This document shows, piece by piece, positions 4,024-27,634 of a stretch of 31,627 bases of DNA. The notes beneath the pieces are model-generated. The model ran no database searches. It was not told where the DNA came from and worked only from the letters and a program-made list of their open reading frames with translations. Location of the stretch: the NCBI GenBank assembly GCA_964619145.1, contig CAZUCG010000001.1, positions 1 to 31,627 on the forward strand, given 5' to 3'. The translations under genes and the position numbers were made by a program. Position 1 is the first letter of the stretch. Each line of letters starts with the position of its first letter. Source of the stretch: an uncultured Lentisphaeraceae bacterium (GTDB taxonomy: Bacteria > Verrucomicrobiota > Lentisphaeria > Oligosphaerales > Oligosphaeraceae).

Positions 4024-4214
4024 TGCCCTGCCAGCGAATCACCGGCCGGGGCTAGCGTAGCCGGCCTCCCTGCTGAATAGAGCGCCGTTCTTAGCAGGGC
4101 AATAGCGCTTGTGAATGTCGGCTTTGGGTCCCTGGAATTCAGCAGGCCACAAAAGGCAATGGCAGTTTACCGAATGATGGGAGTGGGATAGGTTTTTTGG
4201 ATTTGGAGCACATT

Positions 4215-7200
4215 GTGGTGTCAGAAAATAAAGAAAAGAGTATTAAGGAAGCCGCTGAGCAATTGCGCTCAGTGCTATTGTTACTTACAGCCCCAGCTAG
4301 CATCAAAGAAATCGAGAGGGTCTTGTTTTTGGCCTCCCGCTGCTTGCCGAGACTGTCGCGGATGCCGCTAGTCAAGCTCGAGAAATTTGCCAACTATCTG
4401 ACCCGTAATGGAATCTTGCTGTGTGAAGATAATAAGTGGACGGCAGCCGGTAGCAGCCCCGCCGAAGTCAGGCGAGTGTTGACCGATAGCCGCTATGCTA
4501 CCTTGGCAGATTGCATCTCCCGAGCAATACCAGCCATCGGCAATCGCGGCACACCGGATTTGCAGTATCTGAAGCGTGATATCCGGAACGCTTTCTATTC
4601 TTGCGATTGGAAATTGCTGAACGCCAGCTTGACTAATTTACACGACTATTTCCCGGCCGAGGACGAAGACGGCCAAGGCGTGGCGTTCTTGTTGGAAGAG
4701 CCGGATTGGGAGAACTTGATTGCCCTGCCGGAGCCGCTGCTGCCTATCTGCGCTTGGCAAATCCTACCGGTGGCCATCAATAAACTACTCGATGTCCGGA
4801 TAATCGAAAATAAATTTATGGAGCTGCACAAGCGCTTCCCGTTGCGGCCCATTTTGTATATGATCGACTATGAGTTGTTACGTGGTAATTTTGCCGATGC
4901 TATGGTGTTAATTAAGCACGTTCAAAAGACGACTAATAACAACGTGCTGAAACTGCGCAAGGCTTGGTTCTTCAGTGTGTTGGGCAAGGATGAGCGGGCT
5001 GTGAGCCTGTTCACCGACTCCTTGCACGAAGTCCGACAAGAAGGCGAACACGATTTTTATTTCCAGACTATCGGTGGGATATTTTTCCTGTTTTCCCAAT
5101 TGCGCACTGGCACGCCGTCAGCGTTGCTGACAGCCGAGGCTAATGCCGAACTCGCGACCCAGAATCCGAGTTGGGGGATGGTCTATCAGATGCTCCTAGG
5201 AGTCATTCGTTACCGCCGGACCCAGGAGCTGCCAGAACAACTCCCCGAACCGGAGGACCTCAACCCGTTGCAGGAATTTTTCTGGATTCTGGGAGCTTAC
5301 TGGCTAGCTTCGGATTTGACTGACGAGCAGCACGAGAGTATCCAACGAATTTGTCAGTTGGCCAAATCTTCCGGTTTTGACTGGCTGGCACAGGAGTGTG
5401 AGGAGTTGCTGCTCCGCACCGGTGAGCACAAAGACACGTATTCACCAAAGGAATTCCACGAAAACTTCGGCAAGTTCAAGGGCGTGCCCTTCCTCTTGAA
5501 TTGCGTCCAGACGGAAAATAGCTGGATGACTAGACTGAAAAATTTCCGTGGTTTTTTGGAGAGCTTGCCTGATCGCCATGTCCGTCGTTTAGTCTGGCTG
5601 GTGGACGCCAATGATGCCGCCAGTGGCTTGTTGACTGTCCGGCCGATGGAACAGCACGCGACCCGCAGCGGCAAATGGAGCAAGGGCCGGAAGTTCACCG
5701 CCTTCCGCAATCAGAATTACAGCCGCATTGAGCAAGACTTGGATTCTTATATGTCCGGCTATCAGTTGACCCCACAGGATAAGTTCGCTTGCTCTATCCT
5801 GCGCGAGGCCATCAGCAAGATTGAGGAGGATAGCAGCAACATTATTCCGGCCTGGGGCTCAGTCTTCCTGTCCTTGGTCGGCCATTCACGGATCTTGCTG
5901 GAAGCGCAGGTCCAACGCCATTTGCAATGTCTGACCGCTACGCCATATATCCGCTTGCTCTGCCACGATAATTATTATGAATTCCAATTGTGGCCGCCGG
6001 CGCAAGACGATGAGCCGATCGTCTTGCGGCTGAACCACGGCGATGTGGTCACCGTGTATATTTTTGACAATGAGTACCTGCAGCTGCGGCAATTGATCGG
6101 TAAGGAATTACGCTTGCCTTGCGATGCCCAGGATCAGCTCGAGGAATTCTTGGGGAATCTCTGCAAACGCTACCAAATACTCTCCGATTGCCCGTTAACA
6201 GCCGTGAAATTACTCGGCGAAGCAGCTGAGAGCAAGCCGGAATTCCGCCTGATCCCTGAAGATCAGGGCCTGCGGGTGGAGTTGTTTGTGACCCCATTCG
6301 GGGTGGCGAATGGCTATTTCAAGCCTGGCAAAGGGCCACTGGAGATGATTACTCATCAGGACAATAGCCACCACCGTTTGGTCCGGGATTTCTCTTGTGA
6401 ACTCGCTCGAGCAGAGACGGCGGTGGAGGCCTGCCCGGCGCTTACCCCGGAAAGGGCCCAGGATAACTGGATCTGGATTTTGGAAAACTCCGAGGATTGC
6501 TATGAGTTCACCTTACAACTACAGGAGATACTGAATCTTTGTACTGTGCAGTGGCCGGAAAATCACAAATTCTCGACTACCAAGACCATCGGCCTGGGAA
6601 ATCTCTCTTTGCGTACCCAGAATTATAAAGACTGGTTTGGTTTGCAGGGCACAGTGACAATTGACGAGAACAAAACTATCTCGCTGCAAGAATTGCTGAA
6701 GCGCAGTAAGGGCGAGCGGGGCCGTTTTATCGTCCTAGATGACGGACAAGTCATCGCTCTGAGCGAGAATTTCCGCCAACGCCTTGATGAATTCAATCGC
6801 CTCGGCGAGCCACAGAATGATATTTTTCGCATCCATCCGTTGCTGCAGCCGCTGCTCAATGCCTTGACTGGCGATGTCGGCAAAGTGGAGCACGCGAAGG
6901 AATGGCACGAACAGCTCGCCCGGATGGAACAATCGATGCAGCTTACCCCTGAGATCCCGAAGGAGTTCCAAGGGACTCTGCGGCAATATCAGGTCGATGG
7001 TTTCGTCTGGATGTATCGCTTGGACGGCTTTGGTGCCGGAGCTTGTCTGGCAGATGATATGGGCCTCGGCAAGACTATCCAAGCTATTGTTCTTATCCTC
7101 AGCAAGGCCTCTGAGGGGCCCACACTAGTCATTGCGCCGACCTCGGTCTGCGCCAATTGGCAAGCGGAATTAGCTAAATTCGCACCATCTTTGAAGGTCG

Positions 7201-8354
7201 TCACTTTAGGCACCAACGACCGGCTTGAGACTCTGACCAGTATGGGCCCGCATTCGGTCCTGGTCACCAGCTATGGCTTGTTGCAGAGCGAAAATGAAAA
7301 ATTCGCCAAGATCACCTGGCGAGTCGCGGTTTTAGATGAAGCGCAAGCAATCAAGAATTGCCATGCTAAGCGTTCCCGGGCGGCGTTGAATATCAACGCC
7401 ACTTTCCGGCTGGTAACGACGGGCACACCCGTCGAGAATAACTTGAATGAGCTATGGTCGGTCTTCCAGTTTATAAACCCGGGCTTGCTAGGCTCACGCG
7501 AGCTGTTTCAGCAGCGCTTTGCTATCCCCATTGAGCGGGAAGACAATCGTGATGCGCTGCAACGTCTCAATAGCCTGATTAAACCGTTTTTATTGCGTCG
7601 TCGCAAAGACCAGGTGCTACTCGAATTGCCGCCCAAGACAGACATCAACCATATTGTCGAATTGTCCAGCCCAGAACGGCAGTTCTACGAGGCCTTGCGC
7701 CGGGAAATTCTCGCCGAATTAGAAGAACGTCGTGATGGCGAAGGGCAGATGCGAATCCGAGTCTTGGCCGGTATCACTAAACTGCGCTTGGCGACTTGCC
7801 ATCCGAGCTTGGCCGGAGCCGGCCCGGAAATCCCCTCCGCCAAGTTAGATACCTTCTTGGAATTGCTAGAAGAGCTCTTGGATGGCGGGCACCGGACACT
7901 GGTCTTCAGTCAGTTCGTGAAATTCCTTACGATTGTTCGGGAAGCCCTGGATGAGCGGCAAATCCCCTATCAATATTTAGACGGCAGCCTTTCCGCGAAA
8001 GAGCGCTCGGCCGGTGTACGAGTCTTCCAGAGTGGCTCTTGTCCCGTTTTTCTGATCAGCCTGAAAGCCGGCGGTGTGGGGCTGAATTTGACCAAGGCCG
8101 ATTACGTGATTCATCTTGATTCTTGGTGGAATCCCGCCGTGGAGAATCAGGCCTCCGACCGTGCCCACCGCATTGGCCAGAACAAGCCAGTGACTATTTA
8201 TCATTTGCTGACCAAAAATACCATCGAAGACAAAATTCAAAATTTGCATCAATGGAAGCGCGATCTCGCCGATCAGATTCTCAGTGGCAATGATAAAATT
8301 TCCACTATTAGCGTTGATGAATTGCTAAAACTCTTGGCGGAAGAGACTGGCTAG
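4215..8354 (+). CDS. SNF2/Swi2-family SF2 ATPase with ~900-aa N-terminal region (alternative start TTG 4197)
   Basis: LRQYQ Q-motif, LADDMGLGKT, DEAQAIKN, TGTPVENNLNELWS, LRRRKDQV, VFSQF, SLKAGGVGLNLT, WWNPAVENQASDRAHRIGQ. GGAG at 4205-4208 lies 6 nt before GTG 4215. Confidence 0.92.
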   Translation: MVSENKEKSIKEAAEQLRSVLLLLTAPASIKEIERVLFLASRCLPRLSRMPLVKLEKFANYLTRNGILLCEDNKWTAAGSSPAEVRRVLTDSRYATLADCISRAIPAIGNRGTPDLQYLKRDIRNAFYSCDWKLLNASLTNLHDYFPAEDEDGQGVAFLLEEPDWENLIALPEPLLPICAWQILPVAINKLLDVRIIENKFMELHKRFPLRPILYMIDYELLRGNFADAMVLIKHVQKTTNNNVLKLRKAWFFSVLGKDERAVSLFTDSLHEVRQEGEHDFYFQTIGGIFFLFSQLRTGTPSALLTAEANAELATQNPSWGMVYQMLLGVIRYRRTQELPEQLPEPEDLNPLQEFFWILGAYWLASDLTDEQHESIQRICQLAKSSGFDWLAQECEELLLRTGEHKDTYSPKEFHENFGKFKGVPFLLNCVQTENSWMTRLKNFRGFLESLPDRHVRRLVWLVDANDAASGLLTVRPMEQHATRSGKWSKGRKFTAFRNQNYSRIEQDLDSYMSGYQLTPQDKFACSILREAISKIEEDSSNIIPAWGSVFLSLVGHSRILLEAQVQRHLQCLTATPYIRLLCHDNYYEFQLWPPAQDDEPIVLRLNHGDVVTVYIFDNEYLQLRQLIGKELRLPCDAQDQLEEFLGNLCKRYQILSDCPLTAVKLLGEAAESKPEFRLIPEDQGLRVELFVTPFGVANGYFKPGKGPLEMITHQDNSHHRLVRDFSCELARAETAVEACPALTPERAQDNWIWILENSEDCYEFTLQLQEILNLCTVQWPENHKFSTTKTIGLGNLSLRTQNYKDWFGLQGTVTIDENKTISLQELLKRSKGERGRFIVLDDGQVIALSENFRQRLDEFNRLGEPQNDIFRIHPLLQPLLNALTGDVGKVEHAKEWHEQLARMEQSMQLTPEIPKEFQGTLRQYQVDGFVWMYRLDGFGAGACLADDMGLGKTIQAIVLILSKASEGPTLVIAPTSVCANWQAELAKFAPSLKVVTLGTNDRLETLTSMGPHSVLVTSYGLLQSENEKFAKITWRVAVLDEAQAIKNCHAKRSRAALNINATFRLVTTGTPVENNLNELWSVFQFINPGLLGSRELFQQRFAIPIEREDNRDALQRLNSLIKPFLLRRRKDQVLLELPPKTDINHIVELSSPERQFYEALRREILAELEERRDGEGQMRIRVLAGITKLRLATCHPSLAGAGPEIPSAKLDTFLELLEELLDGGHRTLVFSQFVKFLTIVREALDERQIPYQYLDGSLSAKERSAGVRVFQSGSCPVFLISLKAGGVGLNLTKADYVIHLDSWWNPAVENQASDRAHRIGQNKPVTIYHLLTKNTIEDKIQNLHQWKRDLADQILSGNDKISTISVDELLKLLAEETG

Positions 8355-8722: not shown

Positions 8723-9661
8723 ATGAGTATGAGAAAGCACAGCGTTGTTGCTCCGGATTGGTGGGATTATACCACTATTGCTGATGACTTGGTGGCCGAA
8801 ACCGCCCGGCTGACCGTGAAAGACATGGAGAACTTGAGCCGTCCTGGCTTCAAGGTCGTGATGTACGATACCATCGAAGAATTCTACTTGGCCGAAGCTC
8901 TGGAATATATCGAGGCTTGGCGGCACTCCACCCCCGATAACCCTTGCGGCATCTGCGGACCCATCGGCCCCACTGAGCAGCTGCCACTCGTTGCACGACT
9001 GGTCAATGCATTGGACCTGAATCTCGCGAAACTCGAAGCCCAATTCTGGGGTATGGACGAATGGGTGCAGAATGGCGTGGCAGTAGGCACTGATCACCCG
9101 CTGTCGTTTTCCAAATGCGTTAAAGGACTTTGCTTCGACCATATCCGCCCAGAACTACGGATGCCAGATAAAAATATGCATTTCCCCTCCGGTGACCTCT
9201 CGGCTTATAGCCGCACTTATGACCAATTCAGCTGTAAATTGATGCAGGGCGGGCAAGGCGACACCAAGCACTGGGCTTTCAACGACCCGCTGAAACGCGA
9301 GGGAAAATACGCGGATAACCCGCCGACTCCGGCTGAATTTCGGCAGCTGGGGACTCGTATTGTGGATTTGCACCCGATGACAGTGATGCAGAATGCCCGC
9401 ACTTCTGGTGGTGGCAATATTGCTTTGGTGCCGACCACTGCCGCCACAGTCGGACCAATCGAGACTTGGAAGTCTGAGAAGGTCTCGATCTGGCAAGCCG
9501 GTAACCACGATAACGCATTTGGAATGCGTTTGACCACACTGATGATCAGTAAGCGTATCCCGGATGCCGCTGTGCCGATGTCGTTGTTGGCGGACCACCC
9601 CAATGTCCAATTCAACTTCTATCGTCCCGGCATCGGCAAATGCGAAGTGGAAATGCACTAG
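8723..9661 (+). CDS. Divergent glucosamine-6-phosphate deaminase (NagB)-like protein, 312 aa (alternative start 8729)
   Basis: GPIGPTEQ phosphate-loop equivalent, [21 protein letters not shown] (cf. NagB GxGxxGHIAFNEP), terminal LLADHPNV. No signal peptide. Confidence 0.8.
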
Positions 9662-13283: not shown

Positions 13284-14201
13284 ATGTGGGAAGTTTTCGC
13301 GAACATCTTTCAGATCGTGATATTGGCCTTGTTCTTCTATATGGTCATGCGACTGTTGCGGGGCACGCCGGGATTATTGATGCTTGGCGTAGTCGTGGTG
13401 GTTATCCCAACCCTGAGTTTGGCGGCGAACTTCTTCCAGTTGGAAGTCCTGCAATGGCTCCTGCAGAATATTAGCGAGAGCCTGCCGATAATGCTGATTA
13501 TCATCTTCCATTCCGAGATCCGCCGGCTGCTGGCCTTCGTTGGCAGACATCGCTTGCGGGTCTTTCAACGCTTGCTGTCGGAGAAGAAGAAACAGCGCGC
13601 TATTGATATGATCGAGGAGATCGTGGATGCCGTCTGTGCCTTCACCACCCGACCGAATTGGCGCTCCCCAAAGACACCGAATAAACTCAAGAATGTCTTC
13701 CAGAATACTGGCGCGTTGATTGCCATAGAATTGGCACCACGCTTAAATGAGTATATTGAGAAGGGGGTGGAAATCAACGCCAAGGTCAACAGCTTGCTGT
13801 TGCAGACGATTTTTTACAATGGTACGCCTTTTCACGACGGCGGGATCATCATCCGCAATGAGCAGGTCGCGGCTGCGGCCTGTCAATTCCCACTTTCCAG
13901 CAGCGCCAGAAATCAGTCGGTCCACACGCGTCATAGTGCCGCGATTGGCCTCTCTGAGCAGGTCGCTGATGCAGTCGTTATCGTTGTTTCAGAGGAAACC
14001 GGCACAGTTAGCGCTACCTTCAAGCAAGGCGAATTGCAAGTTATGGATACGCCACGGCAACTCGATAAGCTCCTGCGCCAGAAATTACACGTCCTCCCCG
14101 GTGACGAAGGCCAAATCGGACTCTGGGAAAAGTTAGCCGACAAGTTTTTACAGTTGGTTGCCAAGTTCAAGACTCGCAAACAAACTACGAGCAAAGAATA
14201 G
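13284..14201 (+). CDS. cdaA: Membrane-anchored diadenylate cyclase CdaA/DacA (DisA_N domain), variant motifs, 305 aa
   Basis: Three N-terminal hydrophobic segments, IIIFHSEIRR, TGALIAIE, TPFHDGGIII, TRHSAAIGLSE, IVVSEETGTVS. Classic position between folP and a ybbR gene. Confidence 0.88.
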   Translation: MWEVFANIFQIVILALFFYMVMRLLRGTPGLLMLGVVVVVIPTLSLAANFFQLEVLQWLLQNISESLPIMLIIIFHSEIRRLLAFVGRHRLRVFQRLLSEKKKQRAIDMIEEIVDAVCAFTTRPNWRSPKTPNKLKNVFQNTGALIAIELAPRLNEYIEKGVEINAKVNSLLLQTIFYNGTPFHDGGIIIRNEQVAAAACQFPLSSSARNQSVHTRHSAAIGLSEQVADAVVIVVSEETGTVSATFKQGELQVMDTPRQLDKLLRQKLHVLPGDEGQIGLWEKLADKFLQLVAKFKTRKQTTSKE

Positions 14202-14259
14202 TACCGGCAAGTGGACCATTTCCTTTTTCTTAACCTCAGCAAACAAGCAGTAATTCGCA

Positions 14260-15363
14260 ATGAGTTGGTCGAATTTCAGTCACAAGCTCCGCTATTATTT
14301 CCAGCCCATCTGGCTAAGCATCTGCACCGATATCTGGCGCAAATCCTTCGCCTTGCTGCTGGGATTTATTTGTTGGTATTACATCTATATTGGTTTCCGC
14401 GAGAAGGATAACGAATGGCGGACTTTCGCGAAGGTCCCGGTGAGCTTACAAAAACACCCCGAATTCTACTTGCCTCGACAGGAGAACTTGACTGTCGAGC
14501 TGAAGATCGCGGTCGAGAGCTCAGCTCGGAAGGGGAGCATTGCCCCAGATGATTTTTTGATCGAGATTAATCCCGCCCGACTGAAGTTGCCATCACTCGA
14601 AGATAGCAATTTTTTGCGGCGGCCCTACAAAGTTACTTTGAACGTAGACGAGCATATTAAACAGAAGCCGCCGGGAGTGAAAGTCTTGCGCTTCGACCCG
14701 CCCGAAGTGGAAATCTATTTTGATCGTCGTTTGCAAGTGCAAAAGAAAGTCTATGTGACTATCCAAGGGCGTTTGCGAGAAGGCTTCGATTATCGCTACG
14801 AATTAAGTCAAGATACAGTTACCGTGGAAGGGCCGGCTTCAGAGTTGGCCAATTTGCTGGTGATATACAGCGCCCCACTGCTGTTGAATGAAACTATGCA
14901 ACACGATTTTTCCACCAAACTGGGCGTCGCCAGCCCAGATGGCAGTAAATTCAATGTCTTCCCCGATACTGTCGAAGTCAAGGTTAATATTGAAGACAAA
15001 AAAAGCGTCATCAGCCAGAAATTCGCGGCGGTGAAATTGGCCCTGCTGTTCCCCAGCCGCAGCCATTTGCGAGTGACTAATCAGTTGCCCGATAGCGTGG
15101 AGGTGATCTTACGGGGTCAAAGGGAATTGATGAACGCTATCAAACCGGAACAATTTACCGCATTTTTGGACCTGACCCACCTTACCACACCTGGGACGTA
15201 TGACGAACTGGCAGTGCAATTCGTCGGCTTGCCCGCTGAAATCAAGCCATTCTTTATCAAGCCAGATAAATTTATCGTCACTTTAGCTGCGAGAATGCCA
15301 GCCGGTGGCAGCAGCGATGCGGCTAAGGCTTCAACAGATATCCCCGGCAATAATGGCAATTAA
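14260..15363 (+). CDS. cdaR: CdaR/YbbR-like regulator of diadenylate cyclase, 367 aa
   Basis: N-terminal TM (KSFALLLGFICWYYI) then repeated beta-rich units ending P..V.V (PPEVEI, QDTVTVEGPASEL, PDTVEV, PDSVEVILRG). Directly after cdaA. Confidence 0.8.
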   Translation: MSWSNFSHKLRYYFQPIWLSICTDIWRKSFALLLGFICWYYIYIGFREKDNEWRTFAKVPVSLQKHPEFYLPRQENLTVELKIAVESSARKGSIAPDDFLIEINPARLKLPSLEDSNFLRRPYKVTLNVDEHIKQKPPGVKVLRFDPPEVEIYFDRRLQVQKKVYVTIQGRLREGFDYRYELSQDTVTVEGPASELANLLVIYSAPLLLNETMQHDFSTKLGVASPDGSKFNVFPDTVEVKVNIEDKKSVISQKFAAVKLALLFPSRSHLRVTNQLPDSVEVILRGQRELMNAIKPEQFTAFLDLTHLTTPGTYDELAVQFVGLPAEIKPFFIKPDKFIVTLAARMPAGGSSDAAKASTDIPGNNGN

Positions 15364-16306
15364 TACCCAACCTTGTTTGATTGTTACTGGGCCGACTGCT
15401 ACCGGGAAGACACACTTGGCGGTAGCGCTGGCTAGAAAATTCCAGGGTGAGATTATCAGCGCTGATTCGCGCCAAGTCTATCGCGGGCTCGATATCGGCA
15501 CCGGCAAAGACTTGCAGGAATATGGTAGCGATAATGACCGCATCCCCGCGCATTTGCTCGATGTGGTTGAGCCAGGGGAGGAGTTCCATCTCTTCCGCTT
15601 TGTCCAGCTGGCCAGAGATGCTATCCAGGATATCGGTCAGCGTCAGCGACTGCCGATTATCGCCGGTGGCTCGCCGTTGTATCTGCGGGCGTTGCTCGAT
15701 GGTTATGAGTTGCAGGGTCCCCCGCCTGATACCGCCTATCGGCAGCAACTCTCGACACTGTCGGAGCAGGAGCTGATTGGGATGCTGCAACGCCAGGCTA
15801 CACCAGCGCTCTTTGCCCGCACTGACTTGACGCAACGGCGGCGGTTGATCCGGGCTTTGGAGATTGCCCGCTCCGGCGGCGACGGAAATTTCCCACCTGT
15901 CGGCCTGGAGAATACCTTGATTCTCGCTCCTAAGTATCCGCGGCCAGTTTGTCATCAGCGCATCGAACAGCGCTTGGATGAACGCCTGGCGCACGGCTTG
16001 CCGGAGGAAGTCGAGCGCTTGCATCAACAGGGGCTATCTTGGGAGAAATTGGAATGGCTCGGTTTGGAATATCGCTATCTGGCCCAATATTGGCAAGGGC
16101 AGCTGACTTGGGCGGAAATGCGTCAGGCACTCTTGGCCCGGATCCGGCAGTTCTGCAAGCGCCAGGATATCTGGTTCCGGAAAATGGAACGCGAGGGCAA
16201 GAAGATCCACTGGCTGCCTGAAGGAGATTTCACACTTGCCTGCCGCTTGACCGAAGAATGGCTGGCCCAACAACGCAATGCCAAAACTTCAGCCCCACTT
16301 GGTTGA
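15353..16306 (+). CDS. miaA: tRNA dimethylallyltransferase (MiaA), 317 aa; overlaps the cdaR stop by 11 nt
   Basis: GPTATGKT P-loop, SADSRQVYRGLDIGTGK, HLLDVV, GGSPLY, RRLIRALEI, RQFCKRQDIWFR. The ORF-track GTG 15305 extension looks non-coding for this gene. Confidence 0.93.
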   Translation: MAINTQPCLIVTGPTATGKTHLAVALARKFQGEIISADSRQVYRGLDIGTGKDLQEYGSDNDRIPAHLLDVVEPGEEFHLFRFVQLARDAIQDIGQRQRLPIIAGGSPLYLRALLDGYELQGPPPDTAYRQQLSTLSEQELIGMLQRQATPALFARTDLTQRRRLIRALEIARSGGDGNFPPVGLENTLILAPKYPRPVCHQRIEQRLDERLAHGLPEEVERLHQQGLSWEKLEWLGLEYRYLAQYWQGQLTWAEMRQALLARIRQFCKRQDIWFRKMEREGKKIHWLPEGDFTLACRLTEEWLAQQRNAKTSAPLG

Positions 16307-19879: not shown

Positions 19880-20965
19880 ATGCTGAAAATTCTTTTCCCC
19901 TTCCACGGGGCTGTACTGAATCGCTGCCACGGCCAGCAAAATACCGCGGGCTTGACAATTGAGGTCACCGGCACCGCACCAATTTGCAGTGAAGTCACGG
20001 TCAATGGGCGGCTCGCCCGGCGCAAGGGCGAATTGTTCTGTGCCGATATCTTGCTAGATCGTTTCAGCAATGCCATTACCGCCAGTTGCTCTGGCGTGAC
20101 TGGCACGAGCGAGCAATCCATCAAAGTCATTTGGGATAAGAACTCCCGTCGCCGCTACCGCGTCGCCATCGATGATAATTCCTTCTTCCTTAGGGACCTC
20201 TACCAAAAGCGCCCAGCTGACTTGTTCAGTAACCACTATTTGGCCATCCTGAAACGCTTGCACGCTGAATTCGGGGCTAAATACACCCTGAATCTCTTCT
20301 TCTCTACACCGGAGAAGGATTTCGATTTATCGCTGCTGCCTGATACCTGGAAATCGCAGTTTGCTGATAACAGCGACTGGCTGAAGATGACCTGGCACGC
20401 CGATAACGAATTCCCCGACCGGCCATACCAATACGCCACCCCGGAAAAAGTCGCCGCCGACTTCGATAAAGTCCAGACCGAGGTCGTGCGCTTTGCCGGC
20501 GAGAGCTGCTTCTGCCCGGCGACCATCGTGCATTGGGGCGAAATCCTGCCCTCGGCCCTACCGGCGCTCTATCAGCGTGGCGTGCGCGCCCTCAGCGGCT
20601 ATTTTAACCGCGACGAGCAGCGTTACAATGTCAGCAACGGCCTCGATGAAGTGCGTTGTCATTATCTGAATAGCCACGACGCGCTAATGGATTTCGAGAG
20701 CGGCATCGTGTTCAGTCATATCGATATCGTAGTCAATTGCACGCCAATAGAGCAAATCGTCCCGACACTCAGTAAATACGTTGACGACCCCGATAACTCG
20801 GAAGTAATGGATATCTTGACCCACGAACAGTACTTCTGGCCATTCTATTTCAATTACATCCCGGACCACGAGCAGCGGATGGCGACGGCATTGCGCTTCC
20901 TCCACGAGAACGGCTATGAGCCAATCTGGCTGCATGAGGGGCTGCTCGGCGTCGAACCAGCGTAG
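19880..20965 (+). CDS. Hypothetical protein: N-terminal Ig-like beta domain + NodB/polysaccharide-deacetylase-like barrel, 361 aa
   Basis: The ORF has an RBS (AGAGGA) and is tightly packed in the cluster. Motifs AIDDN, TWHADNEFP and ILTHE are spaced like CE4 motifs 1, 2 and 5. The fold call is inference. Confidence 0.6.
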   Translation: MLKILFPFHGAVLNRCHGQQNTAGLTIEVTGTAPICSEVTVNGRLARRKGELFCADILLDRFSNAITASCSGVTGTSEQSIKVIWDKNSRRRYRVAIDDNSFFLRDLYQKRPADLFSNHYLAILKRLHAEFGAKYTLNLFFSTPEKDFDLSLLPDTWKSQFADNSDWLKMTWHADNEFPDRPYQYATPEKVAADFDKVQTEVVRFAGESCFCPATIVHWGEILPSALPALYQRGVRALSGYFNRDEQRYNVSNGLDEVRCHYLNSHDALMDFESGIVFSHIDIVVNCTPIEQIVPTLSKYVDDPDNSEVMDILTHEQYFWPFYFNYIPDHEQRMATALRFLHENGYEPIWLHEGLLGVEPA

Positions 20966-21000: not shown

Positions 21001-21972
21001 ATGCACATAAAAATCAGCCATCTCAGCCGATCTTTCAAGAAAGTCAAGGCGGTCAGTGACCTCACCTTCGAATTCGCGTCTGGCAATATCTTTGGCTTTA
21101 TTGGCCCTAATGGCGCTGGCAAGACCACCACCATCAAGATTATGGCCAGTATGGATATGCCAGATGCCGGCGATGTCTTCTTCGACGGTGTATCGGTCGT
21201 TAACTATCCGGAAAAAGTCCGGCAGCTGGTCGGCTATATGCCTGATACACTGCCGGGCTACAAGGATATCCACGTCTGGGAGTACCTCGATTTCTTTGCC
21301 CGCAGTTTTGGCTTACAGGGACAGCAGCGGCGACAGACATTGGCCGAAATCGAAGAATTCACCTCCTTGGGTGATCTGCGGGAGAAGCAAATCTCGACTT
21401 TGTCCAAGGGGATGAAGCAACGCGTCAGCTTGGCTCGCGCCTTGGTGCATAATCCGCAAGTGCTGATTATGGATGAGCCGGCGGCCGGGCTCGACCCCCG
21501 CAGCCGGCGCGAATTGCGGAGCCTGCTGAAAATTTTAGCTGGTCAGGGTAAGGCGATCTTGCTTAGCAGCCATATCTTGACTGAGTTGCAGGATATCTGT
21601 GACGGAGCAGTCATTATCGAGCAAGGGCGATTACTCTCGGCTGGTACTATCCCGCAATTGCTGGCTCAGAGCCGGCAGAAACAGCAACTCGAAGATGCGA
21701 ATGCCAATGCTGACGAAACTGTGCAGCTGCTCATCCAGTGCTTGCGTGATGGCGAGGCAGTGCGCCTCAAGCTGCTCGAGCACCCGGCTGTACTTGAGGT
21801 CCAACTGACGCTGAACAATACCGTCCGGGCTCAGCTCAAATGTCAGGACGAAGAAATACCTGCCATTATGGCCACGCTATTTGCCGCTGGACTGCCGATT
21901 GTCGGCTTCGCCAAGCAGGAACTCGGCTTGGAGGAACTTTTTATGCGTATCACCTCCGGGAAAGTGCAATGA
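21001..21972 (+). CDS. ABC transporter ATP-binding protein (ABC-2/exporter type), 323 aa
   Basis: GPNGAGKTT, LSKGMKQR, LIMDEPAAGLDP, SSHILTE. Confidence 0.93.
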   Translation: MHIKISHLSRSFKKVKAVSDLTFEFASGNIFGFIGPNGAGKTTTIKIMASMDMPDAGDVFFDGVSVVNYPEKVRQLVGYMPDTLPGYKDIHVWEYLDFFARSFGLQGQQRRQTLAEIEEFTSLGDLREKQISTLSKGMKQRVSLARALVHNPQVLIMDEPAAGLDPRSRRELRSLLKILAGQGKAILLSSHILTELQDICDGAVIIEQGRLLSAGTIPQLLAQSRQKQQLEDANANADETVQLLIQCLRDGEAVRLKLLEHPAVLEVQLTLNNTVRAQLKCQDEEIPAIMATLFAAGLPIVGFAKQELGLEELFMRITSGKVQ

Positions 21973-23402
21973 AGATTGCGGCCAGGGACCTCAGTGACTG
22001 GTTCAACCCAGTGTTTATCAAGGAATTGCGGCAATTCTTCCACAATTACCTGATCCTGGCTGTGATGGCATTGCTGCTCATCGGGCAGCAACTTATTTTG
22101 CTCTTTGTGCATTTAGCATATACTAGCAGCGGGAATCTCAATGACAATACCGGCCGAGTGGTCTTTACCTTTATTGTCGTTGGCCTAGTGTGTTGTATCT
22201 TCGTTGTCTGCGGGGTGGGTGCCGCGCAGCGATTCTTGCTTGAAAGACAGAACGAAGAACTCGATTTCTGCAAACTGACCGCAATCTCGCCAACTCGTAT
22301 TATTTGGGGGAAGTTATGCAGTTCGCTGGTGCTATTGGTCTTTATTACCTCGCTCTGCCTGCCCTTTATCGGCATAGCGTATTTCCTGCGAGGAATAGCT
22401 ATCCTGCAAATGCTGAAGGTAATGCTGCTGTTATTGCCTGTAACCTTGGCGATTATTTTTTCGGCCATTTTAGTTGGCGCGATAGGCAAGAAGGGCCTCG
22501 CCGGGCTGTTGAGCATCGGCGGATCAATTTATGGCATTACCGTGCTGACGCTCATTTTTAATGATACCCAGGTCTGGACTTCGAGCTCCGGAGCCGATTT
22601 GCCATTGTTGTTGTTCGCAATTATTATCCCGTTATTCTGGAGTGGCTTATGCTATGTTCTCAGCGTGGCCAGCGTCAGCCATTCCCTGGCCAACAGGATG
22701 TTGCCAGTCAGAATTTATCTGTTGACACTGTTAGCGGCCTGCCCCCTGGCAATGGCCGCGCTGGCTGCCTTGACCGACGAACACGTACTCGATTTTTTGC
22801 AGATTAGTTTCAGCCTTACTGCCAGTATCGTGGTGGGCATTGTCGCAGCCCTGGCCGCCTGCGAACGCTCGCGGCCTAGTCTGCATATCCAGAACCAATG
22901 CCCGCGTAACATCTTTTTGCGCAGTGGCTTCTTTTTACTCTCCAGCGGCTCAGGCGGTGGCATCACGCTGGCGGCCTTAATCTTGCTGCTGCTGGTTGCT
23001 CTGCCGGTGCGACTGGCCTCCGGCAGTTCAGACTTATATTTGATCTATACCTTCACTGATATCGCCATCTATCTGCTGTTCTATGCCGCCCTGGCGATCT
23101 TTTTGCAGGAGTGGATGCCCAGATTATCTGGCCTTGCTTGGTTTTGCCTGAATCTCATTGTGCTATTGTTGCTGCCAGGCATTGTCAGCGGCTTTATCGG
23201 GGTGACTGAGGCCAAAACATTTAATTACCTGACGATTACCAGCCCATTTTTTCTGTTTGCGGTCGATTACCCCGAGCATTTTGGGCAATTCAAGCACAGC
23301 ACTAGCTTGCCGTTCGCGACCGCGGGGTTGTTTCTGGCTAGCCGGAGTATTAGCCTGCAATGGCGGGCATTACGACTGAATACTGCCGACGCGGCTAAAT
23401 AA
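21969..23402 (+). CDS. ABC-2-type permease / polytopic membrane protein, 477 aa
   Basis: ATGA overlap with the ATPase stop; NPVFIKELRQ; ER..EELD..LT.ISP..IIWGKL; about a dozen hydrophobic segments. Confidence 0.8.
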   Translation: MKIAARDLSDWFNPVFIKELRQFFHNYLILAVMALLLIGQQLILLFVHLAYTSSGNLNDNTGRVVFTFIVVGLVCCIFVVCGVGAAQRFLLERQNEELDFCKLTAISPTRIIWGKLCSSLVLLVFITSLCLPFIGIAYFLRGIAILQMLKVMLLLLPVTLAIIFSAILVGAIGKKGLAGLLSIGGSIYGITVLTLIFNDTQVWTSSSGADLPLLLFAIIIPLFWSGLCYVLSVASVSHSLANRMLPVRIYLLTLLAACPLAMAALAALTDEHVLDFLQISFSLTASIVVGIVAALAACERSRPSLHIQNQCPRNIFLRSGFFLLSSGSGGGITLAALILLLLVALPVRLASGSSDLYLIYTFTDIAIYLLFYAALAIFLQEWMPRLSGLAWFCLNLIVLLLLPGIVSGFIGVTEAKTFNYLTITSPFFLFAVDYPEHFGQFKHSTSLPFATAGLFLASRSISLQWRALRLNTADAAK

Positions 23403-23437
23403 TAGCCGTCATAGTGACTGAAAGAAAGAGGAATACC

Positions 23438-25333
23438 ATGAATCTGACGTACCAGCCTGACCGAGTTAAACCGGAAATCGCCGCCCTGCTGCAGGAACTG
23501 GCGGTCGAGTACCCTATCGCACCTAATGCCGCTGGATTGATGCTGGATTTTGTCCCGGCTGCTGAGCCCTCGACGCTGCGGGTTACCCGTACTACCACCG
23601 GTCTGAAAATCGAATACGGTAAGACAGCCGCGGCCGCTCGCGGCATCGGCTATGCTTTGTCGGGGACAGAAACGACGGAAGACCTCTGCTTCGAGACTTA
23701 TGCCATACTCTACGATTGCTCCCGCAATCCCGTGTTGACGGTTAAGCACGCTCAACATTGGCTGCGCCGAATGGCGCTGCTAGGCTATGATATGATGATG
23801 CTCTATACCAAAGACGCCTATCAATTGCCCGGTGAGACCTACTTCGGATATATGCGCGGCGCTTACAGCATCGAGGAAATCCAGGCTATGGACAAGGTGG
23901 CGCAGCGCCTGGGCGTGCAGATGTCCGCCTCAATCCAAGCTCTCGGGCATCTGGAGCCGATTCTGCGCTGGCCGGCCTACGCTGGCGTCAAGGACACCGA
24001 TAACGTGATTATGGTCGATAACGAAGACAGCTACCAGCTGATCCGCAAGATGCTGACCTTCTGGAGTGAGGCGCTCTCCTCTCGTCGTATCCACATCGGG
24101 ATGGATGAGACGCACGACTTGGGCCGCGGCCGCTTCCAGGACCTGCACGGCAAGCAAGATGCCTTCGAGCTCTATAATCGTCATTTGCAACGCGTCTGCG
24201 CTATCTGCAACGAACTACAGCTGCAGCCGATGATCTGGAGCGATATGTACTTCCGCTTGGGGAACAAGAATCTTAGCTACTATGATTTGCAGAGCAAAAT
24301 CCCGCAGTCGGTCAAAGACGCCATCGCCCCTGAAGCGCAGTTGGTCTATTGGGACTATTATCACCGCGACGAAGAATTCTATCGCAAGATGCTGCAACTG
24401 CACCGTGACCTGGGGAAAAAGCCAGTCGTGATGGCTTCTGGTATCTGGACTTGGGTGAAGCTCTGGTACGACCACGAAATCACCACCGCGACAGTGCGGC
24501 CTTGCCTGCAGGCCTGCCGCAAAGAGGGCGTGAAAGAAGTAATCTATACTCTCTGGGGTGATGACGGCGGCTATTGCGAGTTCGATTCGGCTTTCGCAGG
24601 AATGGCCTGGGCCGCGGATGAGGCCTTTAATGGACATAGCGACGACGAGAGATTGGAGAAGTTTTTCGCAGGCGTCTTTGGCACCAGCTACCGCCGGCAG
24701 CTCCTGGCTTCCGATTTGACCATCACCGTCCGGGATACCGATATGAGCCCCGAAATGGCGAAACGGCACGGCTCGCCACCCTGGCGATTGCACGCGCCTT
24801 GCGCACTCTGGGATGACCCCCTGATGGGCATCGTCTGGCACGAATATAAGGCCTATAATTCCAAAGTCTGGGAGAATTATGCCGCCGACTTACACCTGCT
24901 ACGCGAGCAACTCAGCCCCTACCGGATTACTGACCGTAGTGCCGGCTATATTGACCACGCTTGGCATTGTGCTAATGCCTTGCTGCAAAAAGTGGAATTG
25001 CGCCTGCAGTTGCTCAAAGCCTATAAAAAGCGTGACCGTAATGCCCTGAAAGCCATTCGCGGGGCCAAGATCGATGCCGTAATCTCGGCCTTGGACGGCC
25101 TGAATGATTCATTTCGCCGCCAGTGGCTGCGAAGCTATAAATATTATGGCCTGGAAGTTATGCAAATAAAATTGGCTGGCCTGAAAGAGCGCTATCGTGA
25201 GACCAGCCGCCGGATCGGCGAGTTGTTATCTGGCGAAATCGCCTCGATCCCCGAGCTCGAGCTGAATCCCGAGACACTCGGCTCAACCGACACCCGCTAC
25301 CGGATGGCGGTTACCGGCGGCTGGTTTATTTGA
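23438..25333 (+). CDS. GH20 beta-N-acetylhexosaminidase, GcnA-like, cytoplasmic, 631 aa
   Basis: YDCSRNPV, MALLGY, YFGYMRGAYS.EE, IQALGHL, catalytic HIGMDET, MIWSDMYF, YWDYYH, WGDDG all follow streptococcal GcnA. No signal peptide. AGAGGA RBS before ATG 23438. Confidence 0.9.
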   Translation: MNLTYQPDRVKPEIAALLQELAVEYPIAPNAAGLMLDFVPAAEPSTLRVTRTTTGLKIEYGKTAAAARGIGYALSGTETTEDLCFETYAILYDCSRNPVLTVKHAQHWLRRMALLGYDMMMLYTKDAYQLPGETYFGYMRGAYSIEEIQAMDKVAQRLGVQMSASIQALGHLEPILRWPAYAGVKDTDNVIMVDNEDSYQLIRKMLTFWSEALSSRRIHIGMDETHDLGRGRFQDLHGKQDAFELYNRHLQRVCAICNELQLQPMIWSDMYFRLGNKNLSYYDLQSKIPQSVKDAIAPEAQLVYWDYYHRDEEFYRKMLQLHRDLGKKPVVMASGIWTWVKLWYDHEITTATVRPCLQACRKEGVKEVIYTLWGDDGGYCEFDSAFAGMAWAADEAFNGHSDDERLEKFFAGVFGTSYRRQLLASDLTITVRDTDMSPEMAKRHGSPPWRLHAPCALWDDPLMGIVWHEYKAYNSKVWENYAADLHLLREQLSPYRITDRSAGYIDHAWHCANALLQKVELRLQLLKAYKKRDRNALKAIRGAKIDAVISALDGLNDSFRRQWLRSYKYYGLEVMQIKLAGLKERYRETSRRIGELLSGEIASIPELELNPETLGSTDTRYRMAVTGGWFI

Positions 25334-25347
25334 GCCCGCCCAAGGCT

Positions 25348-25389
25348 AAGAGCTGCCGTTGGCCGCTATCCTGATCAACGCCAGCTCTT
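25348..25389. terminator. Strong hairpin between convergent genes (possible bidirectional terminator or stabiliser)
   Basis: AAGAGCTGCCGTTG (25348-25361) pairs with CAACGCCAGCTCTT (25376-25389) at 13/14 positions; no U-tract on either side. Confidence 0.5.
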
Positions 25390-25401
25390 GCTAAGAACAG
25401 A

Positions 25402-26388
25402 TTAATTTTCGGTTTGAGCCGGCATCTTCCAGGCCGGCTTGCGCCGGAACGGCTTCTCAAAAGTATTATTGATGCGCCCAGTTTGTTCTAAATGCATCAT
25501 ACAAGCACGGATGCAGCCAGCCGCGCCTTCTAACGCCCGCGAATAAAAATATTGCGGAGGCAGTTTGTAGTTCTGGGAGCGAGCGACCGGCTCGGTAAAT
25601 TTTTCCTTGTCCTCGGGTGTGACGCTAAAGGGATTGTGTTTTGACGATGCGCCGCAGAAGTATCGGCTACAGAGCGAGTAGTCGATGTCGGCCCATTCAA
25701 TCGGCACGCCATCGATGACTACTCGAACACACTTGTTGTCATCTGTGGGGATGGCATTGCCAGTGCAAGCCTTGGCACAGAGCTTGCAACGGTCGCAAAT
25801 CGTGCCCGGTTTGACAATGGGGTCGTAGTCGAATTCAGCATCTGTCAACAGCAGCGCGATGCGCTGCCGGGGGCCGAATTCTTTGGTCAGGAAGATTTTG
25901 CTCCAGCCTATCTCGCCCAAGCCGGAAATTACTGCGCCGAGGCGCATATGGACGGATAGGTTAGGGTGGGGCAGCCCCTCTCGCAGCGGTCGGCTGCTGG
26001 CCGGATGGGGTATTTGCTCCTGGCCGTGCGGGAGTTGTCCAGAGGTATTTGTCGCTCCCCAGGCGAAGTGATTGGGGATGGGCATTGTATCGTAGCCTTG
26101 GTCCTCAATCCAGCCGCAGATTTCTCGCAACACCATTGGTTGGCGGATGCAGTTGATGCTGGCATACGCCACCCCCGAGTAGTTGGTGAAAAATGTCCCC
26201 TCTTCAATGCCACGAAAGGACCCACGCAGGTGACGGAAAGCCAAGCCGATAATCGACTTGCAACCAGGAAGGATGTAACGGACATCGAATTGCTTGGGCG
26301 CGCCCTCATAACGACTGACTGGACCGATCGACACGGCGTCTGCACCTGCTTCTAAGGCGCATTGTTTCAGCAATTTTGCGCTTAGCAT
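25402..26388 (-). CDS. Cobalamin/4Fe-4S protein of the QueG/reductive-dehalogenase superfamily, paralog B, 328 aa
   Basis: GADAVSIG, SGLGEIG....LTKEFGPRQR...LTD, CDRCKLCAKAC, DYSLC, GCIRAC. GGAG RBS 7 nt before ATG 26388. Confidence 0.8.
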   Translation of the reverse strand: MLSAKLLKQCALEAGADAVSIGPVSRYEGAPKQFDVRYILPGCKSIIGLAFRHLRGSFRGIEEGTFFTNYSGVAYASINCIRQPMVLREICGWIEDQGYDTMPIPNHFAWGATNTSGQLPHGQEQIPHPASSRPLREGLPHPNLSVHMRLGAVISGLGEIGWSKIFLTKEFGPRQRIALLLTDAEFDYDPIVKPGTICDRCKLCAKACTGNAIPTDDNKCVRVVIDGVPIEWADIDYSLCSRYFCGASSKHNPFSVTPEDKEKFTEPVARSQNYKLPPQYFYSRALEGAAGCIRACMMHLEQTGRINNTFEKPFRRKPAWKMPAQTEN

Positions 26389-27365
26389 TGGCAATCTCCA
26401 AAGCGAGTTTTGAATTTGTTCTTCAGCACGCCGCGTTCTTCGAGGTGCTCCATACAGGCGATATGGCAGCCGCGCCAGGCGCCGACCTGCCGGCCGCTCC
26501 AGACGACCGGCCCCAACTTGTAATTGCGGGCCTCGGTGTAAGGCTGTTGATTGAAACCGACTTTGTCCGCCTCACTAACAATAAATGGATTGCACGACTT
26601 CTCGCCGCCGCCATGCAGCGCCACGCTGCATTTGGCAAAGTCCAGCTTGTGCCAACTTATTTCCCGGCCGGCAATCTTGACGCTGACCTTCTCACTGCGA
26701 GAAATGGCGCAGCCCGGGCATTGTTCTATACACTTGCCGCAGTGGTCGCAGAGACCACCAGAGAAAATTGGGTCTGGGTCGAGTTCGGCATCAGTCAGGA
26801 CTACCGCGAACATCTGTCGCGGGCCGTATTCCGGGGTCAAGAAAGTGCCGCTGTCACCAATCTCACCTAAACCAGCGCAGTAGGCCGCCAGGCGCATCTG
26901 GAAGTAGATGTCTGGCGCAGGGCGGTCATCACTGACCGGGCGGCTGTAGTCGCTGCTGTCTTTGCCGAAGAAAGCTGGGTTCACGTCGATGAAATCCTGG
27001 CCCATCTCGTCTGGATTGATGCCGTCCAGGTTACTCCAAGGGAAGGCGTCGGGGATGGGCACGGCCTCATAACCGATATCTTCGAAGATATTGCAGAATC
27101 GCCACAGCGTCACGGGTTGGAAGACCCATTTATTGCAGGCGTAGCCCATCATACTGAGTGGCGCATAGAAGGTCCCGGCTTGCACCCCGCGGTATAAACC
27201 GCGGAACATCCGGAAGCCTAACACGATTACCGATTTCGCTTCTGGGAAGATCGACATCGGGTTGTAGCGGGCAGGTAGCTCGGCAAAGCGATCTGGCGAT
27301 GCAATGCCCACTAAATCCGCGCCAGAATTAATGGCCTGTGCTTTGACTTGGGTACTGGTCAGCAT
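26382..27365 (-). CDS. Cobalamin/4Fe-4S protein of the QueG/reductive-dehalogenase superfamily, paralog A, 327 aa (alternative start 27371)
   Basis: GADLVGIA, AGLGEIG....LTPEYGPRQ....LTD, CDHCGKCIEQCP, DFAKC, GCHIAC. AAGGA RBS; its stop overlaps the paralog B start by 7 nt. Confidence 0.8.
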   Translation of the reverse strand: MLTSTQVKAQAINSGADLVGIASPDRFAELPARYNPMSIFPEAKSVIVLGFRMFRGLYRGVQAGTFYAPLSMMGYACNKWVFQPVTLWRFCNIFEDIGYEAVPIPDAFPWSNLDGINPDEMGQDFIDVNPAFFGKDSSDYSRPVSDDRPAPDIYFQMRLAAYCAGLGEIGDSGTFLTPEYGPRQMFAVVLTDAELDPDPIFSGGLCDHCGKCIEQCPGCAISRSEKVSVKIAGREISWHKLDFAKCSVALHGGGEKSCNPFIVSEADKVGFNQQPYTEARNYKLGPVVWSGRQVGAWRGCHIACMEHLEERGVLKNKFKTRFGDCQC

Positions 27366-27502
27366 AATCATTCCTTTGTCTGCAATAGTATATTACTCAA
27401 GCATTGATACCTGAAAAAGCTAACAATAAGAAAATAATTTAACTGCCATCGCCGAAATTACAACCGCGGAGAGGCGTGATTGGAAAAATAAGATCGCCCG
27501 AT

Positions 27503-27530
27503 TTGCGCTTGCCTGAAACTAGAATATATT
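27503..27530 (+). promoter_or_regulatory. Putative sigma70 promoter for the vWA/TPR gene
   Basis: TTGCGC, 16-nt spacer, TATATT. Confidence 0.35.
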
Positions 27531-27541
27531 CAGACTAATAA

Positions 27542-27634
27542 ATGGAGACCTGCTGGACGTTGTGGACCTTGTGTTGGCAATCGCTGAAATTAATTGCCTG
27601 CTGTGCATTTGCTCATACTATACTTCTTTGCTAA
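27542..27634 (+). CDS. Candidate 30-aa Trp/Cys-rich upstream ORF (METCWTLWTLCWQSLKLIACCAFAHTILLC)
   Basis: Open frame from ATG 27542 to TAA 27632-27634, which overlaps the next ATG (TAATG). No homology evidence. Confidence 0.2.
   Translation: METCWTLWTLCWQSLKLIACCAFAHTILLC

Follow-up and report, generated by a model that had tools for sequence, protein, structure and literature searches.

Two overlapping genes, here called A and B, lie on the minus strand of a contig from an uncultured Lentisphaeraceae bacterium (GenBank assembly GCA_964619145.1, contig CAZUCG010000001.1, positions 1 to 31,627; this whole stretch of 31,627 nucleotides is referred to as the window). According to sequence profiles and a structure model, both products belong to the superfamily of class III cobalamin and iron-sulfur (Fe-S) enzymes that includes the reductive dehalogenases (RdhA) and the epoxyqueuosine reductase QueG; they are nearer to RdhA and fall outside the curated definitions of both. 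On balance, we favor the reading that A and B form a heteromeric, cytoplasmic reductase with cobamide and Fe-S cofactors, in which B is catalytic and A auxiliary and whose substrate is probably derived from carbohydrates. Our confidence in any specific substrate is far below that in this overall picture. The non-equivalence of A and B, the age and strictness of their pairing, the extent and taxonomic spread of the family, its seven-cysteine pattern, the usual U32-family partner and the lack of conservation of the “glycan cluster” neighborhood of the window in the closest relative are all new with respect to a preliminary description of the pair made from the sequence of the window.

The A/B gene pair

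Gene A (26382-27365 including the stop codon, coding 26385-27365; 327 amino acids) is followed head to tail by gene B (25402-26388 including the stop codon, coding 25405-26388; 328 amino acids), both on the minus strand and with A on the 5′ side. We classify A as an A-type, degenerate or auxiliary paralog of the RdhA/QueG superfamily and B as a canonical family member, presumed to be the catalytic subunit. The ORFs confirmed the tandem, overlapping paralogs of ~327 amino acids reported in the preliminary description: the two proteins share 39% identity across 325 residues (E = 2e-71), which is far beyond chance, and all the shared blocks listed there (GAD, RG..RG...GTF, ED.GY..PIP, NPF, NYKL and GC..ACM.HLE) were found in both. 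The 7-nt overlap ATGCTAA (..gccaATGcTAA; 26382-26388, minus strand), also exactly as described, sets the start codon of B (ATG, 26388-26386) on the stop codon of A (TAA, 26384-26382), suggesting translational coupling; read directly, the stop codon of B is at 25404-25402. An identical 7-nt overlap is present at the closest ortholog locus, L001.

Similarity to reductive dehalogenases and QueG

The NCBIfam model of reductive dehalogenases (TIGR02486) matched A with 50.3 bits and B with 33.9 bits, below its cut-off of 160.35, and the QueG model (TIGR00276) matched them with 30.8 and 18.5 bits, below its equivalog cut-off of 200. The TIGR02486 match was a single stretch in each protein (residues ~152-228), and both models covered the central ~70 residues only. 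In Pfam, A and B showed sub-threshold Fer4 matches only, and no DUF1730. A family profile built from 37 members and compared with PDB sequences found PceA at 1.5e-19, NpRdhA at 1e-11 and QueG at 7e-9, and a single-sequence search (phmmer) against PDB gave the same ranking; core-segment alignments were obtained by phmmer and the profile to 8q4h, 4uqu, 4ras, 6zy0, 5d08 and 5d6s. The AlphaFold2 model of A (pLDDT 88.2, pTM 0.89) showed the RdhA/QueG-type fold, i.e. an alpha/beta core of the corrinoid-binding kind with a ferredoxin-like domain after it. In a Foldseek search with this model, all the 46 PDB chains at E <= 0.001 were PceA, NpRdhA or QueG (TM 0.40-0.50; E-values 8e-9 to 1e-6), and the next matches were CblD and CblC at E >0.03. 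The profile, PDB-sequence and Foldseek results combined argue for a place in the superfamily nearer to RdhA than to QueG, as the preliminary description had held.

The core segment common to RdhA and QueG is present in both proteins. In A it comprises residues 161-198 (26772-26885, minus strand; AYCAGLGEIG..LTPEYGPRQMFAVVLTDAELDPD), which is homologous to the part of RdhA and QueG that binds the corrinoid, and in B residues 152-190 (25819-25935, minus strand; AVISGLGEIGWSKIFLTKEFGPRQRIALLLTDAEFDYDP), in which K164 and R176 are kept (A positions 173 and 185). GLGEIG, GPR and T191 are invariant in the family. The GLGEIG/T.E.GPRQ/TD motif previously reported for both proteins was recovered, but both spacers are six residues long, not five. 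Each protein may be described as a minimal module consisting of a putative base-off-type corrinoid-binding core and, directly after it, a ferredoxin-like domain.

Neither A nor B contains a twin-arginine translocation (TAT) motif (RRxFLK) or a hydrophobic segment (maximum Kyte-Doolittle mean over 19 residues ~1). Since there is no TAT or transmembrane segment, both proteins are predicted to be cytoplasmic. No small rdhB-like ORF was found in the flanks of the pair, which at 68 bp and 190 bp leave no room for such a gene; the absence of a TAT signal and of an adjacent rdhB, noted in the preliminary description, was thus borne out by motif, hydropathy and spacing. QueG has a strictly conserved D-Y-H motif plus a catalytic Asp (D100-Y101-H102 and D130 in the St enzyme), and its domain layout includes C-terminal helical repeats (PMC4646009). 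As also stated earlier, the D-Y-H motif is absent from A and B; DYH is found in 5 of the 120 closest homologs. The helical-repeat domain is absent as well, A ending 23 residues past its last cluster cysteine (C304 of 327).

Non-equivalence of A and B

Residue conservation was analyzed in 99 full-length members from 86 distinct loci, comprising 93 canonical sequences (including B) and six A-type sequences. Among the canonical members, R185, R302, E62, Y70 and Y75 were 100% conserved, E63 was 99% and K173 97% conserved. The A-type members have M at 185, M, I or Q at 302, G at 173 and L or I at 30; A of the window shows K173G, R185M and R302I, and further Q62, A63 and L70. B keeps every family-invariant residue (pattern AEEYYKRR). 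The 45 database clusters closest to A all carry the A-type signature, with M and rarely K or L at position 185.

In the profile-to-PDB alignment, R185 of the family consensus GPRQR aligns with Arg305 of PceA and Lys488 of NpRdhA, and the K488Q crystal variant 6zy0 fixes the register on Lys488. This residue is implicated in transferring protons (the RdhA Tyr-Arg motif) and has no equivalent in QueG (PMC4646009). B has an Arg at the position (R176); A does not (M185, codon 26811-26813, minus strand). Y70 and Y75 are the invariant candidates for the active-site Tyr, and candidates only; A has L70. Judged from the alignment, A has lost conserved active-site-type residues and the two paralogs are not equivalent.

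A keeps GLGEIG, GPR, T191/D192 and all the seven invariant cysteines of the family. Between the window and L001, the A orthologs are 79.8% identical (dN 0.178) and the B orthologs 70.0% identical (dN 0.259), dS being saturated in these comparisons. Given the kept motifs and a conservation higher than that of B, A is a constrained, specialized paralog and not a decaying copy.

Cysteine pattern of the Fe-S sites

Only seven cysteines are invariant in the 99-member alignment: C206, C209, C212, C216, C246, C300 and C304. The first Fe-S motif is C206-x2-C209-x2-C212-x3-C216-P in A (26718-26750, minus strand; invariant in the family) and, by alignment to A, C198-x2-C201-x2-C204-x3-C208 in B (25765-25797, minus strand); Fer4 matches to both are sub-threshold. 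The second motif is incomplete. In A it is C246 ... C300-x3-C304 (26452-26630, minus strand), with three invariant cysteines, and in B it is C240 ... C291-I-R293-A-C295 (25504-25671, minus strand), where R293 is family-invariant and missing in A. Position 297, which corresponds to the first Cys of CxxCxxxC in RdhA and QueG, is Ala or Gly in 86% of the members. A and B each have one non-conserved extra cysteine, C258 in A, a candidate fourth ligand, and C245 in B, and 31 of the 99 members have no further Cys between C246 and C300. Two-cluster ferredoxin domains usually swap a ligand between their Cys motifs. With seven invariant cysteines, such a swap would leave one cluster with three (C216, C246 and C300), and the distal site may hold either [3Fe-4S] or a [4Fe-4S] cluster of which one site is open or has a ligand other than Cys.

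Conservation of the pair and fused relatives

An A-type gene directly followed by a canonical B-type gene was found in all the 12 loci in which the residue pattern could be verified (the window, L001, L004, L006, L011, L030, L091-L094, L096 and L097), which answers in the affirmative the question, left by the preliminary description, of whether the tandem is conserved in relatives. These loci span Lentisphaerota, Kiritimatiellia and others, and two more cases are likely, in L012 and at locus tags KKC91_04650/04645. The two genes overlap in four of the 12 loci and are separated by a gap of 4-136 nt in the others. In a neighbor-joining tree, the A-type and B-type sequences were each monophyletic with the same internal branching order. 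On this comparative evidence, A and B are an old, co-evolving and obligate couple.

Many family members occur singly, and up to six paralogs can be found in one locus. Fused forms also exist: 43 of the 150 top-ranking representatives have lengths of 519-836 amino acids (most 725-836), with two or three modules per chain, and these natural multi-module chains indicate that modules of the family do work side by side. Examples are P0134, P0140, P0148, P0193 and L093:4780-7014, the last directly upstream of the L093 A-B pair. The possibility that one module of the fused 725-836-aa relatives is degenerate in the manner of A was considered and rejected, as both modules mostly keep R185. At L093:4028-13066 (GCA_029564245.1, JAKQQJ010000106.1), an IclR regulator gene, a fused double-module gene, the A-B pair, three further single RDH-like genes and a U32-like gene are found together, so that 8 kb of DNA encode some eight RDH-like modules.

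Size and distribution of the family

Homologs of A form at least 1251 clusters at 90% identity. A profile search of 1.84 billion representatives yielded 331 sequences at E < 1e-30 and 1859 at E < 1e-10, and a scan of GTDB species representatives found at least 589 encoding stretches (species). Among the matches listed, the carriers belong to Victivallales, other Lentisphaerota, Kiritimatiellia, Planctomycetota, Armatimonadota, Omnitrophota, Verrucomicrobiota, Spirochaetales, Anaerolineae and many gut and digester Clostridia, and include the cultured Oligosphaera ethanolica DSM 24202, whose locus L038 combines an RDH-like gene with a U32-like gene; most are saccharolytic anaerobes. Metagenomes from landfill, wastewater and manure contain the sequence of the window as well.

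Relatives carry the source names “epoxyqueuosine reductase” (several close ones, in NCBI and JGI), “ferredoxin” and “hypothetical”, and the mislabeling that the preliminary description had expected of automated pipelines therefore does occur. Full-text literature yielded nothing relevant on the family, on a pairing of RDH-like and U32 proteins, or on QueG-like enzymes in Lentisphaerae. Surveys of RdhA diversity distinguish respiratory, transmembrane, cytosolic and “novel” clades and use QueG as an outgroup (PMC12219181). The present family, which scores only 50 bits against the RDH model, would be missed by such surveys. By its sequences, it is a third, uncharacterized and large family of the RdhA/QueG superfamily.

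Genomic context and the U32-like partner

The commonest recurrent neighbor of the family is a U32-like protein of ~344 amino acids, present in 44 of the 86 loci and usually encoded immediately downstream (L092:9182-10210, L006:6840-7865 and L096:6922-7965, plus 41 other loci). Its gene lies beside the A/B pair in five of the 12 loci (L006, L030, L092, L093 and L096) and at KKC91; it is absent from the 31.6-kb window. The U32-like proteins have four invariant cysteines and a near-invariant C-terminal CxxxCxxCxxC motif. They form a family of 2613 homologs, 58-71% identical across phyla, some of which are named “collagenase-like PrtC family protease”, and they are better conserved than the RDH-like genes beside them. 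We know of no solved or characterized close relative. Sub-threshold matches to PF01136 were found in 14 of 38 members. The AlphaFold2 model (pLDDT 88.7) had the U32 protein Mk0906 (5d88) as its best PDB match (E = 5.9e-9), generic TIM barrels following at ~1e-4, four orders of magnitude worse. Comparison by hhalign with the single E. coli UbiU and UbiV sequences gave no significant match, which leaves the fold search and the weak Pfam matches as the basis of the U32 assignment.

Characterized U32 proteins are [4Fe-4S] O2-independent hydroxylases (PMC11574389). The partner of the A/B relatives resembles U32 proteins (UbiU/UbiV, TrhP, RlhA; 5d88) in its fold and in its four invariant cysteines, as found in [4Fe-4S] U32 oxidases (PMC11574389), but differs from them by the extra C-terminal CxxxCxxCxxC and by the lack of a significant profile match to UbiU/UbiV.

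When BLAST clustering and a Pfam survey of the 257 flanking proteins were used to look for a third conserved neighbor, only the U32-like protein and AraC/IclR regulators recurred often. AraC regulators made up 14 and IclR regulators eight of the 257, and LacI and GntR types were also seen. Other recurring neighbors were sugar ABC and SSF transporters, GFO/IDH/MocA oxidoreductases, glycoside hydrolases (GH3, GH4, GH28, GH42, GH123 and GH130), PIG-L and YdjC deacetylases, and GDSL esterases. This context points loosely to carbohydrate catabolism, and not to tRNA modification or organohalide respiration. A gene for a CobA/CobO/BtuR corrinoid adenosyltransferase (L094:13922-14638) lies 6 kb from one A-B pair, and three loci have genes of the URO-D family (PF01208) on the flanks of the module. 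Both observations may connect the family with corrinoid handling.

Proposed function and alternative explanations

We propose that A and B are two subunits of one cytoplasmic heteromer, with neither a membrane anchor nor a tRNA-binding domain. B would be the catalytic cobamide subunit, equipped with all the family-invariant polar residues, and A would be a non-catalytic partner, either structural or a module for electron entry, since it keeps the redox-cofactor motifs and not the polar active-site set. Electrons would flow from a low-potential donor through the Fe-S clusters to the cobamide, reducing it to Co(I). Co(I) would in turn drive the reductive elimination of a leaving group from a small, soluble substrate, and R176 of B would have the proton-relay role that Arg305 has in PceA. 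In many relatives the module would work with the U32-family Fe-S TIM-barrel protein. The strict A-then-B order, the matching branching of the two clades and the fused-module proteins give indirect support to an A:B heteromer.

Several observations weigh against this proposal. Binding of a cobamide is deduced by homology only, and Rfam found no cobalamin riboswitch within the window. The residues lost by A might bind substrate instead of acting in catalysis. The neighbors of the pair in the window (the GH20C-like and VWA genes) are not conserved at the 80%-identical ortholog locus L001, where ExbBD genes are found upstream and an M14 peptidase gene downstream, and outside the A/B pair (and, in relatives, the U32 gene) the genomic surroundings vary. 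Transcript support is limited to one 252-nt metatranscriptome contig at the 3′ end of B; its direction being unknown, it can be assigned neither to B nor to the convergent GH20C-like gene. Literature searches found no experiment on any family member.

The most serious alternative, though a fairly unlikely one, is that the two proteins are separate enzymes, each a monomer or homodimer with its own substrate, which might catalyze, for example, consecutive steps of one pathway; the substitutions in A would then have retuned its pocket for a less polar substrate and not inactivated it. If the residues lost by A served substrate binding, A could indeed be a second enzyme acting on another substrate. 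It keeps all the cofactor motifs under stronger constraint than B, and its replacements are themselves conserved, M185 and G173 being found in nearly all the 45 A-type clusters. Furthermore, QueG (PMC4646009) and NpRdhA are monomers, and the many single family members mean that a partner is not generally required. However, in the 12 loci every A-type gene had a B-type gene directly downstream, A has lost the sole residue aligned with the proton-relay Arg/Lys of RdhA, and the fused relatives suggest joint action of modules. We therefore retain the heteromer with a catalytic B as the better account.

That the pair is a true organohalide reductive dehalogenase of the cytosolic, catabolic type is improbable. 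PceA enzymes are the best matches by sequence and structure, the organism is found in landfill and wastewater, and cytosolic RdhAs without TAT or RdhB are a recognized class (PMC12219181). The likeness to RdhA/PceA (TIGR02486; 4uqu, 8q4h) extends to the predicted fold, the corrinoid core AGLGE.G....T.EFGPR.R....TD (GPRHR in Dehalobacter restrictus PceA, GPRQR in the family), the N-terminal GADLVG(I/V)A strand, the first CX2CX2CX3CP motif and the RdhA-type Arg of B. Unlike RdhA, A and B are ~140-180 residues shorter, have no TAT signal and no RdhB, lack the CxxC cysteine in the second Fe-S motif (leaving a distal site with three conserved Cys only) and, in the case of A, lack the Arg; the resemblance is restricted to the cofactor core, and the TIGR02486 scores of 50 and 34 bits are a third or less of the curated cut-off of 160. 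With NpRdhA/BhbA (4ras, 6zxu) they share a cytoplasmic location without an anchor, a core that aligns over profile positions 91-239, and a basic residue, Lys488, at the R185 site of the family, but NpRdhA has ~700 amino acids with additional domains and is oxygen tolerant, whereas A and B are 327-aa minimal modules, encoded as a gene pair in strict anaerobes. The taxa and genomic context also differ from those of dehalogenases: the family is found in saccharolytic lineages including gut Clostridia, often in several copies per locus, and its neighbors are sugar transporters, glycoside hydrolases, AraC or IclR-type regulators and the U32 protein.

A still less probable explanation is that A and B are corrinoid-less Fe-S proteins on an RdhA-like scaffold, functioning in redox or electron transfer or as site-differentiated [4Fe-4S] enzymes. 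The seven invariant cysteines with a possible open Fe site, the absence of B12 genes and of a B12 riboswitch within the window, and a usual partner that is itself an Fe-S enzyme are in line with it. The best-conserved part of the family is nevertheless the segment common to the corrinoid-binding cores of RdhA and QueG, and the core fold is predicted to be kept with high confidence.

Corrinoid processing in the manner of CblC, for example decyanation, dealkylation or reductive activation of cobamides, was among the roles raised in the preliminary description and is very unlikely. The CobA/BtuR gene near one A-B pair and the weak Foldseek matches to CblC and CblD (E 0.04-0.06) would agree with it, but these matches are marginal and reflect a group-wide fold, cob or btu genes are not consistently nearby, and multi-copy loci under sugar-type regulators are unlike a housekeeping cofactor role.

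Least credible of all is that A and B are divergent QueG orthologs, as the NCBI and JGI names of several close relatives have it: they share with QueG (TIGR00276; 5d08, 5d6s) the superfamily, the predicted class III architecture (cobalamin with a pair of [4Fe-4S] clusters), the cytoplasmic location and a cobalamin and ferredoxin part of similar size, but they score 30.8 and 18.5 bits where the cut-off is 200, are less similar to QueG than to RdhA, lack the DYH/Asp motif (definition in PMC4646009), DUF1730 and the C-terminal helical-repeat, tRNA-binding domain, have in B the Arg305-type residue that is missing in QueG, and belong to a family with up to six paralogs per locus alongside inducible-type regulators.

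The cytoplasmic A/B reductase that we favor may be extended, more tentatively, to a new functional class, the fourth among class III B12 enzymes, beside organohalide respiration, catabolic dehalogenation and queuosine synthesis. To our knowledge, only two chemistries are known for these enzymes, dehalogenation and epoxide reduction on tRNA, and we know of no characterized U32 protein that pairs with a cobamide enzyme. In this conceivable but doubtful extension, A/B and the U32 partner of relatives would form a hitherto unrecognized cobamide-dependent system of anaerobic carbohydrate metabolism, with one catalytic and one pseudo-enzyme subunit and a three-Cys cluster (site-differentiated or 3Fe-4S), and its sugar-derived substrate would undergo a reductive elimination of the C-O or another non-halide type.

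A large and broadly distributed cytoplasmic third family in sugar-utilization loci of gut, sludge and sediment anaerobes would imply an unrecognized cobamide-dependent chemistry, and it also hints at an unrecognized B12 demand in glycan-degrading communities. The label “epoxyqueuosine reductase” will mislead surveys of the queuosine pathway and of cobamide dependence. The asymmetry of A and B may offer a natural pair of catalytic subunit and pseudoenzyme for studying the assembly and electron supply of oxygen-sensitive enzymes, and the recurrent U32 partner an entry to another poorly understood family of Fe-S enzymes.

Other features of the window

Shine-Dalgarno-like sequences are found 7 nt 5′ of the ATG of B (GGAG, 26396-26399, minus strand, within the 3′ end of A) and 6 nt 5′ of the ATG of A (AGGA, 27372-27375, minus strand). 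The latter, together with family N-termini starting MLTS, makes the ATG at 27365 the most likely true start of gene A. The pair lies 68 bp from the convergent gene at 23414-25333, which bears a GH20C C-terminal domain, in accordance with the convergence to a glycan cluster described earlier, and 190 bp from a divergent VWA-domain gene. The intergenic region between A and the VWA-domain gene (27366-27561) presumably contains the promoter of a two-gene operon. Rfam detected no riboswitch or other RNA in the whole window, and a promoter and terminator scan gave consensus-level matches only, which were weak and no better than those in shuffled sequences. The metatranscriptome contig, from sludge, is 100% identical to window positions 25320-25570 (the 3′ end of B and the spacer).

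A block with a diadenylate cyclase (DAC domain), its YbbR-domain partner and then MiaA is located at 13284-16306. This housekeeping block, with SecA and FolP elsewhere, indicates that the window comes from ordinary chromosomal DNA and does not belong to a mobile element. A 1385-aa helicase of the SNF2 family (4197-8354) has no Pfam match in its first ~900 residues. Two ORFs have no Pfam family: 8723-9661 (312 aa), beside a PIG-L deacetylase gene, and 19880-20965 (361 aa), beside a gene for a xylose-isomerase-like TIM barrel. A 520-aa ORF at 21840-23402, also without a Pfam match, overlaps the preceding ABC ATPase ORF (21001-21972) by 133 nt. Translation of this ORF probably begins at a more downstream start, and its product may be the permease partner.

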